Positions 9,356-16,237 of a stretch of 36,150 nucleotides of DNA are shown here, piece after piece. The notes under the pieces were generated by a model. That model was not told the DNA's origin, searched no databases, and was given only the letters and a program-made list of their open reading frames with translations. The first letter of the stretch is position 1. Each line of letters starts with the position of its first letter. The position numbers and the translations under genes were made by a program. Origin of the DNA: a virus (lineage: Duplodnaviria; Heunggongvirae; Uroviricota; Caudoviricetes); IMG/VR virus record IMGVR_UViG_3300046804_001959; one strand, given 5' to 3'.

Positions 9356-9954
9356 TGGCAACGGTATTCGATACCATCATCACACAAGGTGTCCGCGCAG
9401 GTCAGATCCCTGCGCGTACTAATCAGGCGCGTGAATGGTTCCGTGAGACTGCTGGTAAGATGAACCGTGTCAACGAGCGTGAGATGATGCGAGGCGAAGT
9501 GAGTCGTATGACCACACAGCCTCTGCTCGGTTCGATGTACATGTTCTACTACGATCCGAAGTACAAGGAAGAGTTACCGTACTACGATAGATTTCCCCTC
9601 ATTTTCCCATACAAGAAGGTGAAAGGCGGGTTCATGGGACTCAACCTTCACTACCTTCCTCTACAGTTTCGAGCTAAACTGATGGATGGTCTATACGACT
9701 ATGCCAACAACACTCGCTACGACGAGTCGACCAAACTCAAGTTGAACTATGAACTTCTTACTCGTGCATCGAAGCTAAGATGGTTTCAACCTTGTATCAA
9801 ACATTACTTGACTCAACACGTACAATCGAAGTTCATGTACGTGTATCCTTCAGAATGGGACATCGCGCTGTTCCTTCCTACAGAACGCTTTGTCAAAGCA
9901 AAGAAGAACCAAGTCTGGATGGACAGCAAGAGAATGCTAGGAGTTAGTAAGTAA
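9355..9954 (+). CDS. gp2: DNA end protector protein gp2
   Basis: MYMFYYDPKYKEELPYYDRFPLI..GLNLHYLP..PCIKHYL..EWDIALFLPTERF. Confidence 0.95.
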   Translation: MATVFDTIITQGVRAGQIPARTNQAREWFRETAGKMNRVNEREMMRGEVSRMTTQPLLGSMYMFYYDPKYKEELPYYDRFPLIFPYKKVKGGFMGLNLHYLPLQFRAKLMDGLYDYANNTRYDESTKLKLNYELLTRASKLRWFQPCIKHYLTQHVQSKFMYVYPSEWDIALFLPTERFVKAKKNQVWMDSKRMLGVSK

Positions 9955-11000
9955 TGGCTACAACGTTTGAGGAACAGTTCGATGCCGAGTTTGGTACAGA
10001 TAAAAAGCGAGAGTTACAGTTTAGTTCCAACGGTGTTGCGAAGCCTGTAAACTCTGAGATCGACACAAAGAACTTCTCTGCAACAAGAAATCGTAGAAAA
10101 AGTTTTGACATCTCTACTTTCAGAGCAGAAGTTACAGAAATAGACGGTGTTCTTCCTACTCATAGCTTCTTAGTAAGGTTCGCTCCGATGGATTGGGTGA
10201 AGCCTTTCCCATCAGCAGATCGAAATAGTATCGATGAGATGCTGACGATGAGATGCGACAACGTTATTCTTCCGTCCATCAACCTTTTACAAGAACAGAA
10301 CATTCGTAGATACGGTTTCGGACCAGTAGAAAACGTTGCTTATGGTGTTAACGTCGGCGACTTTAGCTTGCAGTTTATCGTTGACAGAAATGCATGGGTA
10401 GTGGATTTCTTCGAAGCGTGGCTAAACAAGATCGTGAACCGTGACTCATACGGCGGAGCTAACATGAATGCCGATGTCGGCGGCGGAAGAACGCCTTACG
10501 AGGTCGCGTATAAAGATTCATACGCATGTTCTTCTGTAAACGTGTTCATCTACGATCGGGCGCAGAACACTGTCATGGAATACAATATCTACGATGTGTT
10601 CCCTACTGGCATTCAGAGCATGAACATGTCATGGTCAGAAGAGAACGCTATGATGAGACTCAACATCACGTTCTCGTTCACAGACCTTCGTATTCGACCG
10701 AAAGCGAGTTTATTTGGGCAGTCTGCTGCAGAAGCTCCGAGCGCACCGGTTTCCGATGTTATCACGAAGATGATGGAAGCCGGAGATAGACCTCTGGTTG
10801 ATCCATCGTTGGTAGTTTCTCTTGATCAACAGACAGCTACCGATCTTTCGAACTTACCTGTCGTGATCGGTGATGGGCCGAATGGAGCGCTTCGTACATT
10901 TGGAACTCCAGAAGATACTGCTCCTTTAGGAACAAGCAGTCCAGAAGTAACACCGCCTACATCACGTGATCCGTTCGGACAACCACAAATACTAGCATAA
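9954..11000 (+). CDS. Baseplate-tail tube initiator (gp54/gp19-like fold)
   Basis: Tail-tube-type core (FFEAWLNKIV..YKDSY..YDVFPTGIQSMNMSWS..LNITFSF); sits between gp2 and gp26. Confidence 0.75.
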   Translation: MATTFEEQFDAEFGTDKKRELQFSSNGVAKPVNSEIDTKNFSATRNRRKSFDISTFRAEVTEIDGVLPTHSFLVRFAPMDWVKPFPSADRNSIDEMLTMRCDNVILPSINLLQEQNIRRYGFGPVENVAYGVNVGDFSLQFIVDRNAWVVDFFEAWLNKIVNRDSYGGANMNADVGGGRTPYEVAYKDSYACSSVNVFIYDRAQNTVMEYNIYDVFPTGIQSMNMSWSEENAMMRLNITFSFTDLRIRPKASLFGQSAAEAPSAPVSDVITKMMEAGDRPLVDPSLVVSLDQQTATDLSNLPVVIGDGPNGALRTFGTPEDTAPLGTSSPEVTPPTSRDPFGQPQILA

Positions 11001-11023: not shown

Positions 11024-11734
11024 ATGCCTTTGCCAAAAATTGATCAACCTCTTTTTGACGTGATCGTTCCTTCTACAGGAAAGAAGATTCTGTTCAGACC
11101 GTTCTTGGTCAAAGAAGAGAAGCTTCTGTTGATCTCTCAACAGGGCGGTGAAGATACTGAAGTGATCAGAGCTATCAAGCAGATCCTGCGTCTGTGTGTC
11201 CAAGACGAAGGTTTCGATGTCGATCGTCTTACTACTTTTGATCTCGAGTACTTGTTCTTGAAGCTGCGTGCGAAGTCTGTCAACAACGTTGTCAAGCTTT
11301 CGTATCGCGATAACGAAGACAACAAGGTTTATAACTTTGATCTAGATCTTGATACGATCGAAGTAGAGATGCCAGAAGGTGTAGACTCGAATATCGAGTT
11401 GAACGATACTATCTCGATGGTGATGAAGTACCCAAGTGCTAGCATCACAGATAAGATCAAGCAGTTCGATAACGAAGTCGATCTTATGACGTTCTTCATC
11501 GTCAACTGCATTGATACGATTCTAACGCCAGATGAGATTTTCCCTGCATCAGATTACTCTGATAAAGAACTCGAAGAGTTTCTCGATCAACTGCCGATCA
11601 CCGCTTTCGAAAAGATTCGTGCGTTCTTTGAAAAGATGCCGAAGCTATATCATAAGATCGAGTACAAGAACGAGCTTGGAAACGACAGGAGTATCGAGTT
11701 AAATAATCTCAAAGATTTTTTTATGTGGCGCTGA
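11024..11734 (+). CDS. gp26: Baseplate hub subunit / assembly chaperone gp26
   Basis: MPLPKI..PSTGKKILFRPFLVKEEKLLL..FDLEYLFLKLRAKSV..FFEKMPKL..DFF; SD CAGGAG upstream. Confidence 0.93.
   Translation: MPLPKIDQPLFDVIVPSTGKKILFRPFLVKEEKLLLISQQGGEDTEVIRAIKQILRLCVQDEGFDVDRLTTFDLEYLFLKLRAKSVNNVVKLSYRDNEDNKVYNFDLDLDTIEVEMPEGVDSNIELNDTISMVMKYPSASITDKIKQFDNEVDLMTFFIVNCIDTILTPDEIFPASDYSDKELEEFLDQLPITAFEKIRAFFEKMPKLYHKIEYKNELGNDRSIELNNLKDFFMWR
11716..11722 (+). other. Candidate -1 ribosomal frameshift heptamer T TTT TTT
   Basis: GAT TTT TTT ATG near the end of gp26; the -1 frame is the open gp51 frame. Confidence 0.65.
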
Positions 11735-11907
11735 GCCACACATCTTTGCCAAACTACTATAGTATGATCTTTGCTTTGGCTCAGCATCACAAATACTCGA
11801 TTACAGAGATCGAAGCTTTGATACCTTATGAGAGAGATCTATACGTCGACATGTTGATGAATCATCTTGAAGAACAGAAACGAGAGATAGAGAGTAGAAG
11901 AAAGTAA
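11725..11907 (+). CDS. gp51: Baseplate hub assembly catalyst gp51 (possibly made as a gp26-gp51 frameshift fusion)
   Basis: LSHTSLPNYYSMIFALAQHHKYSITEIEALIPYERDLYVDML is the gp51 signature. GTG start has no obvious SD. Confidence 0.88.
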   Translation: MALSHTSLPNYYSMIFALAQHHKYSITEIEALIPYERDLYVDMLMNHLEEQKREIESRRK

Positions 11908-14090
11908 TGGCAGGAAAAGGTGGAGGCCGCGCAGCGGCTGCACGGATCGGAGCGGAAGTAATCGGAGAAACCATTGAAGGTATCTTCGGTTTGGCGTCGG
12001 CTACTGTCTCCGCTGCCGGTGAAGCCGCAAAAGGAATCGGTACCGCGGTAGGTGGTGCTCTCGAAGGTGCACTCAGCCCTGCTCCAGTGACTGTCGTGAA
12101 CAATGTAGGAATGGCAGGAGAAGCTGCTAAGGCAAAGGTTACTGGCGGCGGATCTATTCCTACTGCTCCGAAGAAAGCTGCAAAGCCTGTAGCCAACGTC
12201 AAGATGCCTACTGAGAAGCTTCTTGTTATTGCTGTCAACTACCTATCATCGATCGAAAAGACTCTCGAATCTCAACTCAACTTTGAAAGAACTGCTGCTG
12301 CTCAACAAGCTCAAGCAGAAAGAGAAGCTGCTATCGAGGATACGGCATCTCCTACATCTTCTTTTAAAAGTTTAGGAGAAAAGCTTGGAGGTCTGAAAGA
12401 AGACGCGACTGATAGAGCCAGTGCTCTAACTAAAGCCGTTCTTGGAACAGGAGCACTTGCCGGGTTTACATTACTTGGTCTCGGAGAGATGGACAAGTCT
12501 GAGCTAGAAAATCTGAAGAAGAACTGGACTGAGTTCACTGACCAATGGAAATGGGTAACAGATATTCTTGAACCAGTGTTAGAACACTCTGGTTGGGGAA
12601 CCTTTATAGGTTATATGATCGCCGGGCCGAGAGGCGCTGTAGCAGGTTGGTTTGGTGATTTTATCAAAGATATTACTAATAGTGATCTTGCAGCATGGAC
12701 AACGAGTGCAACGGTGGCCACTGGTTTAGGATTATTTGGTAAAACTGCAAGAACTCTATTGTTTAGAACACCCGGAGGTCTAGCTGCATTAGGCACCGCC
12801 GCTACTTTGGCTGGTACTGAAGCGGCTTTTACTTCTACGCAATCATCTGAACAAAAGAAGTTTGCAGATTTCTTTATGAAATATGGTCTGTATGTACAAG
12901 AATGGAGTGAAAACAGTCTTGTAGCAAAGAAATACCGTATTAGTATCCCAGAAAGAAAGATTAATATTGTTAATATTACTCAAGCTCAGCTTAGAGGAAG
13001 TGATAGACCGGCAGACAAGTATTACTATTGGTATATGGTTCTTGAAGCCAGTTGGATGAGAGGTGGAAGTGCAGTAAGAGCTCAGCAGTGGCTCGATTCT
13101 CCCGCTGCTCAAGAGTGGCTAAACAAGTATTTCCCTATTTCAACCGATGCTACGGTTGTACCTCCTGCAAATGATAATGCATCTGAAATTTCAGATGCAA
13201 GCCCTGCAGCATCTTCTTCAGCAACACCCGACGCCGAGGCTCTTCCACCTGCTGCAACTGGTTCGATCGACGCTATTCTTGACAAGAATCCAGAGCAACT
13301 TTCTGATGCAGAACTAAGACAGCTCGTAGAAGCACAAGGTCGCATCGAAGATCCGAACGGAAGAACGAACAATCCGGGTGGTATTCTTTACGGAACTGGA
13401 CCTCTACAAGAACATCAGATTGGATCGGTAGGTGCTAACGCTGATAGTTCAGTGAAGATCGCAGTATATGATACTCCAGAAAACGGTATTCGTGCTGCGA
13501 TGGAAAACTGGAGAAACTCTCGCTACTATCGAGGTAAATCTGTAAGAGAAGGCCTTGGAACTTGGTCTGGAGGAAACGGCGCTCACTATGCACAGATGCT
13601 AGGATCTGTCCGTCCAGGGTATGAAGGCACTTCTAATCCACAAGCCGAATCTGGTGGCAGTGGACTAGCATCTGGCCTGTGGGAAATGACTAAGGGTGCT
13701 ATCGAAGCGGTATCTAATATTATGTCTGCAGCTGCAGGAAAGTACACTCCTACTAAAGGTTCTCAGCTCACATCGTTCAACACTGATATGAAATCGAGTA
13801 GCTCTGTTTCTCCATCTTCTTCGCCTTCAGCTTCATCTGCTGCTGCGCCAATGACTCCACCGCCCGATCCAAAAGTTTCTCAGCTAAACAGCATTTCGAC
13901 TCAGATTCAAACTGCGGTCGATCTTGGAAACGCAAAAGATTCTCAGACGAACATGATGACAAATGTACCATCTGGACAAGCATCTCTTCGTAGTGCATCT
14001 CCAGATGGTAAGCTCGAAGCGATCGATCCTAACTATCCTGGAACAGGTGGCATCGAAGCCTACCTTCAGTACTATAGATTGGCTGCGTAA
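11907..14090 (+). CDS. Tape-measure/gp29-like virion protein A with a lysozyme-like domain
   Basis: Follows gp51. Ala/Gly-rich N-terminus, coiled coil, hydrophobic helices, then RTNNPGGI...YDTPENGIRAA...W..G...Y, a phage lysozyme-like motif set. Confidence 0.7.
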   Translation: MAGKGGGRAAAARIGAEVIGETIEGIFGLASATVSAAGEAAKGIGTAVGGALEGALSPAPVTVVNNVGMAGEAAKAKVTGGGSIPTAPKKAAKPVANVKMPTEKLLVIAVNYLSSIEKTLESQLNFERTAAAQQAQAEREAAIEDTASPTSSFKSLGEKLGGLKEDATDRASALTKAVLGTGALAGFTLLGLGEMDKSELENLKKNWTEFTDQWKWVTDILEPVLEHSGWGTFIGYMIAGPRGAVAGWFGDFIKDITNSDLAAWTTSATVATGLGLFGKTARTLLFRTPGGLAALGTAATLAGTEAAFTSTQSSEQKKFADFFMKYGLYVQEWSENSLVAKKYRISIPERKINIVNITQAQLRGSDRPADKYYYWYMVLEASWMRGGSAVRAQQWLDSPAAQEWLNKYFPISTDATVVPPANDNASEISDASPAASSSATPDAEALPPAATGSIDAILDKNPEQLSDAELRQLVEAQGRIEDPNGRTNNPGGILYGTGPLQEHQIGSVGANADSSVKIAVYDTPENGIRAAMENWRNSRYYRGKSVREGLGTWSGGNGAHYAQMLGSVRPGYEGTSNPQAESGGSGLASGLWEMTKGAIEAVSNIMSAAAGKYTPTKGSQLTSFNTDMKSSSSVSPSSSPSASSAAAPMTPPPDPKVSQLNSISTQIQTAVDLGNAKDSQTNMMTNVPSGQASLRSASPDGKLEAIDPNYPGTGGIEAYLQYYRLAA
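13680..13790 (+). repeat. Copy 1 of a 111-nt coding repeat shared by the two tape-measure-like genes
   Basis: Encodes WEMTKGAIEAVSNIMSAAAGKYTPTKGSQLTSFNTDM; aligns without gaps to 15890-16000. Confidence 0.9.
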
Positions 14091-16237
14091 TGGCTGAACC
14101 TATCACGATCGGCGGTCAAACATTTATCAAAACAGAAGACGGCTGGATAGACAAGAAAACGAAGGTCAGAGCTCCTGAAGGGTTGACTACTCTTCTGGAA
14201 AAGATGAACGTCGACAACACACCTCAAGAAAAGAAGAAGCGTGTTCGTATCGACACGAGTAGACCGATCGTCAAGCTCGGAAAGAGCGAGTACGTTTGGG
14301 ACCTGAACGGAAAGACATGGATCGATAAGAAGACTAAAGATCCAGTCAACCCAAACTTTAGTAAGCTGATCGAAGCCACGTATCAGAGCATCGAAGAAGG
14401 TGTAACACCCGATGATCAGCTTTATAAGAAGCAAATCTCGGATGCTGCATCTAAAAGCATGGGTACTGCAGGCCAAGCAGCCAAGCAGAAGGTGAAGAAG
14501 CCGACTGGTAAAGGGCAGTTCGCTGTTCCGAACGTGAAGATCAACTCTCCTATCGTGAAGATGATCGAGAAACTGGCTACGATCGATACTTACTTAAAGC
14601 AGCGTCTTGAAAATCAGAAGATGACTGCTGCTAAAAATATCGTTGCAGCAAAAGAACAACAGATCGAGTCTACTGCCGCCATCGATGCGCAGCCAGTTAT
14701 CGATGAAGAAAAGATAGATGCTGAAGTAGAAGCTGAGAACAAAAAAGCTAACGCGGCGATGATTGCTTTTGGAATCGGTGCTGCAGGTTTGATAGCTTCG
14801 CAGTTCGATCCCGTCAAAGAAGCGTTTACCGGAGTAGTAGACTTTGCGAAAGGTGTATACGGTTATCTCAAAGATTTCATAAGCATCACAAACAGTGGGC
14901 TCGAGACTATCAATTCAATGGGAAGATCAATTGGATTAGGAGAAAAAACTTCTACTCCTACATCTGGATCTCCGGCATCGAGCAACTCTGGAAATGACTC
15001 TGCATCTATGCAGAGTCCTGTAGCGACTCAAGTTTCTAACCCACAAGATTCTGCTAATCCCGTTCAGAGTTCTGCACCTGTTGCAACAAGCAACGGAGAT
15101 GAGATCGTAGTCACTGCACCGAGAAGATCAACTTCATCATCATCTTCGTCTTCGACCTCATCAGATGAGATAGTAGTTACAGCTCCGCGCAGATCATCTT
15201 CAAGATCTTCTTCATCGAGTTCTTCATCTTCAGGATCTTCTGATGCATCTCGTCAATCGGCACCTCCCCCTACAAGCGCTGCTCCAGTACAAACAAATTC
15301 AGAACTATCTGAAGCTCAGAACGGTACTGTGTGGGCTGGAACAGATGCATCTGGTATGAAGACATTTGTTCGTAAGATTAACAATAAGTTCGAAACGTGG
15401 ACCTCGACAGACGGCACTCACTATGATATCGATGAAAGCCAAGCGCAAGCACAAATATCTTCTCGCGGGCTGCGTAATGTAAACACTGGATCAGATCAGC
15501 GTCAAGCAACTGGCCAGCAAACAATACCGCAAAATAATATTGTAGAATTAGGAAGATACCTGCAAAGTCAAGGCCTTCGTATTTCTGGGCACTCACAGTT
15601 TGGAGGCCAAGAACGAGGAAGTCATAGTGCCAACTCTAGACACTATCGCGATATGGCTATCGATGTCAACGTCGGAACAGGATTAAGGGAAGCAGATGAT
15701 CCTACAGCCGGTGCACGCTTCGATAAGTTAGCTACAGATCTTCGAGCAGCCGGATACAGTGTTATCTGGAGAGCAAAAGATCACTACGATCACTTACACG
15801 TTTCAGTAGGAGGCCCTGAAAGCGCAGGAAGCAGCGGCGAAGGTGCTGACAGCGATAGCAGTCTGATCAGCAATATAGCAAAAGGCGGTTGGGAAATGAC
15901 CAAAGGCGCCATCGAAGCGGTATCTAACATCATTCGAGCTGGTGCAGGAGAATACAAAACTACTACCGGATCTCAGCTCACTTCGTTCGATACTGAGATG
16001 GTAGGAAAAATCAATGCAGCTGCTCGAGAAAAGAATGCAGCCATGGCAGATGCAAAGACAACAGAAGATGTGAAGAAGGTATCCGATCCTCTTAACCTAA
16101 ATGCTAAGAGCGGATCTCCGGTAGTCCAAAACTTGGCATCGTCTGCTGATATCGATCAGGTTCAAAAGTATCTTACTCGTATGGGATTCCCAAAGATCGA
16201 GTATCACATACAGACTCCAAAGATGAACGTGGCATAA
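14090..16237 (+). CDS. Tape-measure-like virion protein B with an M15/LAS-type Zn peptidase domain and two TonB-box-like motifs
   Basis: HYRDMAID (H-x6-D) and HYDHLHVS (H-x-H) Zn motifs; DEIVVTAPRRS twice in a Ser-rich linker; WIDKKTK twice at the N-terminus. Confidence 0.7.
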   Translation: MAEPITIGGQTFIKTEDGWIDKKTKVRAPEGLTTLLEKMNVDNTPQEKKKRVRIDTSRPIVKLGKSEYVWDLNGKTWIDKKTKDPVNPNFSKLIEATYQSIEEGVTPDDQLYKKQISDAASKSMGTAGQAAKQKVKKPTGKGQFAVPNVKINSPIVKMIEKLATIDTYLKQRLENQKMTAAKNIVAAKEQQIESTAAIDAQPVIDEEKIDAEVEAENKKANAAMIAFGIGAAGLIASQFDPVKEAFTGVVDFAKGVYGYLKDFISITNSGLETINSMGRSIGLGEKTSTPTSGSPASSNSGNDSASMQSPVATQVSNPQDSANPVQSSAPVATSNGDEIVVTAPRRSTSSSSSSSTSSDEIVVTAPRRSSSRSSSSSSSSSGSSDASRQSAPPPTSAAPVQTNSELSEAQNGTVWAGTDASGMKTFVRKINNKFETWTSTDGTHYDIDESQAQAQISSRGLRNVNTGSDQRQATGQQTIPQNNIVELGRYLQSQGLRISGHSQFGGQERGSHSANSRHYRDMAIDVNVGTGLREADDPTAGARFDKLATDLRAAGYSVIWRAKDHYDHLHVSVGGPESAGSSGEGADSDSSLISNIAKGGWEMTKGAIEAVSNIIRAGAGEYKTTTGSQLTSFDTEMVGKINAAAREKNAAMADAKTTEDVKKVSDPLNLNAKSGSPVVQNLASSADIDQVQKYLTRMGFPKIEYHIQTPKMNVA
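15098..15196 (+). repeat. Tandem DEIVVTAPRRS peptide repeat (TonB-box-like)
   Basis: Identical 11-aa peptides at residues 337 and 359, with synonymous codon differences. Confidence 0.9.
15890..16000 (+). repeat. Copy 2 of the 111-nt coding repeat
   Basis: Encodes WEMTKGAIEAVSNIIRAGAGEYKTTTGSQLTSFDTEM. Confidence 0.9.

Follow-up and report, generated by a model that had tools for sequence, protein, structure and literature searches.

The window analysed here is a stretch of 36,150 nucleotides from an uncultured, T4-like tailed virus (Caudoviricetes, IMG/VR record IMGVR_UViG_3300046804_001959), and the features of the locus under study are collected in Table 1. The 236-aa ORF belongs to the T4_baseplate family PF12322 (1.5e-57; 195.2 bits against a Pfam gathering cut-off of 24.5) and also matches phrog_150, "baseplate hub" (4.7e-61). 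The 60-aa ORF that overlaps its end matches phrog_634, "baseplate hub assembly catalyst" (5.2e-23), with the match confined to profile positions 58-115 of 121, that is to the C-terminal half, and the -1 extension in which it lies aligns colinearly with the C-terminal 50 residues of T4 gp51. These matches uphold the names gp26 and gp51 that had been given to the pair in an earlier note, written from the letters of this DNA alone. The gp26 family as a whole comprises 3985 representative clusters at E <= 0.001. When the junction was searched as DNA against the phage collection no match came up, and for this reason the relatives described below were gathered through protein searches.

Table 1. Positions of the genes and sequence features at the gp26/gp51 junction of the window
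Feature	Position	Strand	Remark
Tail-tube-family gene upstream (gp54/gp48-like tube initiator)	9954..11000	+	phrog_45 "tail tube", 4.3e-28
gp26-like baseplate-hub assembly chaperone gene	11024..11734	+	236-aa 0-frame product; short, "G-like" form
-1-frame TAA, upstream limit of the -1 ORF	11704..11706	+	direct reading
Slippery heptamer T_TTT_TTT (X_XXY_YYZ, in phase)	11716..11722	+	3 codons before the 0-frame stop
-1 frame extension	11722..11907	+	61 codons + TAA; "T-like" tail of a predicted 294-aa long form
60-aa gp51-like ORF called from GTG 11725, inside the -1 extension	11725-11907	+	
0-frame stop TGA of the short form	11732..11734	+	
Predicted 13-bp long-range stem, 5' arm	11725..11738	+	9-bp core begins 7 nt past the heptamer
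Predicted 13-bp long-range stem, 3' arm	11777..11790	+	
Two large downstream ORFs	11907..16237	+	727 + 715 aa, cell-wall-hydrolase-like parts

The gp26-like ORF ends with the codons AAA GAT TTT TTT ATG TGG CGC TGA, and the first T of its T7 run is the third base of GAT, a phase that fits tandem -1 slippage. Direct reading of ORF 11024-11734 confirmed the X_XXY_YYZ site that the earlier note had placed at 11716-11722, and confirmed its further claim that a -1 slip leads into the gp51 frame: if base 11722 is read twice, the protein would continue as ...KDFF followed by YVALSHTSLPNYY..., in the frame to which the GTG ORF 11725-11907 belongs. The -1 frame is open only from 4 codons ahead of the T7 run and, past the heptamer, remains open for 61 codons up to the TAA at 11905-11907, so that the conceptual fusion counts 233 + 61 = 294 aa, against the fusion of about 293 aa that had been expected. 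T7 runs as such are not over-represented in the window (7 seen, 7.0 expected), and the significance of this heptamer rests on its position, its phase and its conservation. One other in-phase site of the window, A_AAA_AAT at 2776-2782 on the minus strand, falls in codons 15-17 of a gp25-like baseplate wedge gene; its -1 frame closes after 8 codons and the site is probably due to chance.

Close relatives were represented by 80 IMG/VR contigs with a gp26 at 68-88% identity, 78 of which reach the junction, and in every one of these 78 the stretch GAT TTT TTT ATG TGG is identical. They comprise 29 distinct junction sequences in which GAT, TTT and TTT are invariant while the upstream codons vary synonymously, for Leu (TTA, TTG, CTG, CTA or CTT), Glu (GAG or GAA), Ile (ATC or ATT), Asn (AAT or AAC) and also Thr. 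In contig L029, at about 2173-2175, a TAG replaces a conserved GAG six codons ahead of an intact T7, so that gp26 is truncated there unless the TAG is an error of sequencing.

By tblastn, 524 phage records were found to encode a small gp51-like ORF and 676 to encode gp26, and the junction was read in 13 lineages, namely the clade of the window and 12 others. The 12 are the Kyanoviridae P-TIM68, S-CAM4, S-PM2 and P-SSM3, Pelagibacter phage HTVC008M, Sinorhizobium phage phiN3, two KVP40-like Vibrio phages, Desulfovibrio phage 7757, Cronobacter phage S13, Stenotrophomonas phage Ps15 and Aeromonas phage Asswx_1. All 13 carry an in-phase T_TTT_TTC or T_TTT_TTT, 0-3 codons before the gp26 stop, and in all 13 the gp51-like ORF lies in the -1 frame. 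A T_TTT_TTC one codon before the stop was also read in each of 83 further IMG/VR contigs of cyanophage-like and CC2-like Aeromonas-phage type; the KVP40-like and CC2-like phages with the site are Straboviridae. The comparison of gp26/gp51 junctions across distant T4-like phages, which the earlier note had proposed as a check, thus finds both the T-run and the -1 relation conserved from the close relatives to other families. Two phages depart from the canonical heptamer: in Aeromonas phage phiA8-29 (Ackermannviridae; L094, about 2730-2944) and Vibrio phage K351 (L095, about 2565-2795), a gp51-like ORF is likewise found in the -1 frame, with A_CTT_TTC (Leu-Phe) at the site, and in these phages initiation may be coupled, or a single tRNA may slip more weakly.

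The cyanophages allow the junction to be studied codon by codon. Across 81 distinct cyanophage sequences the site is invariably NNT TTT TTC, the codon before the Phe pair being AGT (43), TCT (35), AAT (2) or GGT (1). The Ser at this place is never written AGC, TCC, TCA or TCG, whereas the Ser codons one and nine positions upstream are freely TCA, TCC, TCG or AGC. Immediately after the heptamer the 0-frame residue may be A, G, V, D or E, whereas the overlapping -1 codon is invariably CGN (Arg). The -1 frame is therefore subject to selection as protein from its very first codon past the slip, a point upstream of every candidate start codon. In the close relatives and the cyanophages alike, selection on the junction acts at the nucleotide level. 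Start codons for a separate gp51 are themselves not always to be found: neither S-CAM4 nor HTVC008M offers an ATG, GTG or TTG ahead of the conserved L-x-x-Y-Y motif, the first start codon of the CC2-like Aeromonas phages stands 31 codons in, already well within the conserved domain, and in several genomes without a usable start codon "gp51" has been left unannotated.

T4 itself has a gp26 of 208 aa and a gp51 of 249 aa. Table 2 of Leiman et al. 2010 (PMC3004832) names both as "hub assembly chaperones", gp51 being needed for assembly and absent from the particle (PMC3004832). The two genes are divergently transcribed, so that no fusion is possible in T4. Residues 1-201 of T4 gp51 nevertheless match the gp26 family model (PF12322; 3.9e-52), and its residues 147-246 match phrog_634. 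When the proteins are aligned jointly, T4 gp26 ends 3 residues past FF, as the 0-frame products do, whereas T4 gp51 runs through the junction and goes on with the tail that the conceptual fusions have (Y-Y / N-F / H-H-x-Y / P-x-E-R). Since T4 gp51 joins a gp26 domain to this tail, colinearly with the fusion, we infer that T4 encodes the short and the long forms as paralogues. The likeness between the two systems is therefore one of family (PF12322, phrog_150), of the shared end of gp26 and the 0-frame product, and of the colinearity of gp51 with the fusion; they differ in that T4 has two separate genes and no slippery site, where the window has one gene and a predicted -1 slip, and in that T4 gp26 and gp51 carry Cys pairs which the window protein lacks.

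T4 is not alone in this layout, as a full-length single-ORF gp51 was found in 1380 phage records, mostly Tevenvirinae and allies. We read the gp26 C-terminus in six two-gene lineages (T4, VR26, Acinetobacter phage Henu6, Aeromonas phage AhFM11, Proteus phage Pm5461 and Klebsiella phage Fraggle) and none of the six has the heptamer, their gp26 genes ending with GAG TTC TTT, GAA TTC TTT, AGC TTT ATG, AAC TTA TTA or GCG TTT CTA, or without any FF. Relatives in which FF is recoded had been named in advance as evidence that would refute a frameshift; such recoding (TTC TTT) or loss of FF was met in no lineages but those that encode the long form separately. In the Klebsiella phage Fraggle_ER53 (L183), the long form (247 aa, 1501-2244) and the short form (187 aa, 2231-2794) are adjacent on the same strand, a gene order that may be intermediate between the one-gene frameshift and the divergent two-gene layout of T4.

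An AlphaFold2 model of the window gp26 (pLDDT 85, pTM 0.79) was compared with 48,161 representative PDB chains. The first three ranks, all on model residues 1-95, are 3fgx (Z 8.3, 86 residues), HK97 2ob9 (Z 6.7, 85 residues) and YqbN 3klu (Z 6.4, 86 residues), with ORF12 of the lactococcal phage p2 further down the ranking (Z 3.3). These three entries, 2OB9, 3KLU and 3FGX, are phage tail assembly chaperones (PMC9603447). With Foldseek, 2ob9 was recovered at probability 0.80 and nothing matched at E <= 0.001; searched by sequence against solved structures, gp26 found no match. The evidence that the N-terminal domain has the tail-assembly-chaperone fold is good but not conclusive, as Z values of 6-8 are moderate and in the range of chance matches.

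The comparison with lambda combines this predicted fold with gene position, the window gene being placed between a tube-family gene and large downstream tail proteins, a synteny with the lambda pair of which only the upstream half is shown; the tail-tube-family upstream neighbour is also present in phiN3, HTVC008M, the KVP40-like phages and S13. By contrast, the window protein has no sequence similarity to gpG or gpT, its body of about 235 aa (the chaperone-like domain and a second alpha/beta domain) compares with about 140 aa in the lambda type, its heptamer is U-rich where the slippery site of lambda is G_GGA_AAG, and the role assigned in T4 is hub assembly. The -1 frameshift that is conserved among tail assembly chaperone genes, and of which lambda gpG/gpGT is an example, was reportedly described by Xu, Hendrix and Duda in 2004. 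P2, a myovirus, has a T-rich slippery run near the end of the upstream gene, and its extension is a small domain; its E/E+E' tail chaperone frameshift was reportedly the work of Christie et al. in 2002. The P2 proteins differ from those of the window in belonging to an unrelated sequence family. The architecture of T4 gp51, together with the chaperone fold, lends support to the proposal of the earlier note that gp26 and gp26-51 are the equivalents of G and GT, the fusion product itself not having been shown.

We consider it very probable, judging from the sequence evidence, that both a 236-aa and a 294-aa product are made, by programmed -1 ribosomal frameshifting. The majority of ribosomes would read GAU UUU UUU AUG UGG CGC UGA and release the 236-aa protein. 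In a minority, the two tRNA-Phe on UUU UUU (11717-11722) would slip back by one base, re-pair with UUU UUU (11716-11721) and continue with UAU GUG GCG..., adding 61 residues to give a 294-aa protein that has its N-terminal 233 residues in common with the short one. The short form would correspond to T4 gp26 and the long form to T4 gp51, both hub assembly chaperones. By analogy with lambda gpG/gpGT, the common chaperone-fold body would handle the tape-measure/hub complex, and the rarer long form would carry a small helical adaptor; that the body binds the tape measure and the extension the tube protein is an inference of this same analogy, with no binding data behind it. What the analysis has shown is a slippery site that is in phase and conserved, a fusion that is colinear with T4 gp51 and, with the reserve on the Z values, the fold of a chaperone. 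The slip, its efficiency and the binding partners are inferred, and there is no direct evidence for the fusion protein.

The existing annotations describe two genes, and it could be that they are indeed two ordinary genes, with a 60-aa peptide made from GTG 11725 (or ATG 11764) by translational coupling and the T-run kept for the sake of FF. The GTG overlaps the 0-frame stop by 10 nt, an arrangement in which termination-reinitiation could yield a free 60-aa peptide, and an ATG occurs within a few bases of the gp26 stop in many other lineages (TAATG in the KVP40-like phages, TAG CG ATG in P-TIM68). The GTG is also kept in 78 of the 78 close relatives, but this conservation is uninformative because the 0-frame Met-Trp codons fix it. 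The conservation of FF as protein means that coding alone explains part of the T-run; it gives no account of the T-ending codon before FF, nor of the fact that TTT TTY never becomes TTC TTC. Two genes also leave unexplained the invariant -1 Arg upstream of the starts and the lineages that have no start codon at all, whereas T4 carries the gp51 tail only within a gp26-like protein and the heptamer is gone exactly where a separate long-form gene exists. The earlier note had further pointed to the absence of an evident SD at the gp51 GTG. This is true, the value being -0.9 kcal/mol against a window median of -3.5 and a strong -7.4 kcal/mol for the gp26-like gene, but it makes a weak argument, since a weak SD is common in the window (8 of 32 genes are equally poor), and SD strength was for this reason dropped as a discriminator. 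Taken as the whole explanation, the two-gene account appears to us quite improbable, and independent or coupled initiation at GTG 11725 may nonetheless coexist with the slip.

The ribosomal slip has also to be weighed against slippage during transcription, in which RNA polymerase would add one U on the T-run and some of the mRNAs would encode the fused protein. The site is a homopolymer, an extra U yields exactly the same protein, and the T that precedes the Phe codons fits a requirement for a longer run equally well. On the other hand, most lineages have a run of just 6 T's with a C after it, and the window has 7, whereas bacterial polymerases usually require 8-9 or more to slip productively, and the classical tandem-slippage rule fits the heptamer in every lineage. 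We regard transcriptional slippage as having only a slim chance of being correct, without it being excluded.

That the T-run is a sequencing or assembly error in what is really one continuous ORF, as a 289-aa fused ORF in an NCBI record (P0001; junction ...KFF/YLLMSY..., the stroke marking the join) might suggest and as the earlier note had allowed for, can be set aside with near certainty, since T7 recurs identically in 78 independent metagenome contigs and T6C in 83 more and in many finished isolate genomes. P0001, with PF12322 and PF28602, is the sole NCBI protein found in a search for longer proteins with the 60-aa tail. It is an outlier: 150 of its 150 nearest representatives are short forms, about 190-270 aa long and in most cases 225-250, whose match to it stops at the junction, where they end. 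P0001 probably stems from a T-run that differs in length by one base, although only the protein record is available. Its tail was modelled as three to four helices, at low confidence as there is no alignment support for the C-terminal tail.

Programmed frameshifting at the heptamer remains the best explanation, and the window would add a case to the known class of tail-assembly-chaperone frameshifts, without being a system of a new kind, and would close a gap that has long been quoted. According to Atkins et al. 2016 (PMC5009743), the G-T frameshift of tail assembly chaperone genes is conserved across phages with long tails, "except T4"; it is among the most conserved recoding events known, T4 being the sole exception in reviews (PMC5009743). 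Judged by the window and its relatives, phages of the T4 superfamily do make use of the frameshift, T4 proper having replaced it with two paralogous genes. We think it likely that T4-like phages sensu lato, by which we mean the cyanophages, pelagiphages, rhizobiophages, KVP40- and CC2-like phages and the freshwater-type clade of the window, ancestrally use a lambda G/GT-type frameshift, and that T4 gp26 and gp51 are the same pair split by duplication. We did not find a report of a gp26/gp51 frameshift in the literature searched, subscription journals being outside its coverage, and none is given in PMC3004832, PMC5009743, PMC9024508, PMC5587285 or PMC5349666.

If this reading is true, one textbook exception ("except T4") is removed, and gp26 and gp51, whose roles in hub assembly stayed vague for decades, gain a concrete mechanistic role and a testable function. 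It would also account for the small size of the cyanophage "gp51", a stub of 45-65 aa that is often without a start codon, the long form being systematically missed by gene callers, and the gene pair would need to be re-annotated in hundreds of deposited genomes.

Elements that might stimulate the slip were sought around the heptamer. The predicted long-range stem downstream of it has an MFE of -21.5 kcal/mol (z -3.08), and its cells are 96% paired in 33 distinct sequences of the clade, yet no pair is changed on both sides, so that there is no covariation. Downstream folding in other lineages is mixed (z from +0.4 to -3.4), and a comparable downstream structure is missing in P-TIM68, HTVC008M and the Aeromonas phages. 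Upstream, the window has an AGGAG 24 nt from the heptamer, which is outside the stimulatory range. In the cyanophage loci L096-L175, a conserved L-E-G-L motif writes, in 57 of 81 sequences, an SD-like GAGGG that precedes the heptamer by about 9-10 nt, 23 of the 81 using GAA; the spacing recalls the stimulator of dnaX, and the window is without such an element.

The two large ORFs downstream of the junction have only partial matches. There is a weak endolysin match (phrog_873, 4e-4), and phrog_13339, "tape measure" (6.8e-11), is matched in a peptidase-like part only; the Atlas leads for these ORFs are Phage_lysozyme2 proteins (0.90-0.91), and T4 gp29 shows no similarity to the 727-aa ORF. They are possible tape measure or ejection proteins, which is not proven. 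A segment of 73 residues is common to the two ORFs, with 55% identity (E 1e-15; window positions 13584-13790 and 15782-16000), and includes W-E-M-T-K-G-A-I-E-A-V-S-N-I, a repeated C-terminal module in two otherwise unlike large tail proteins.
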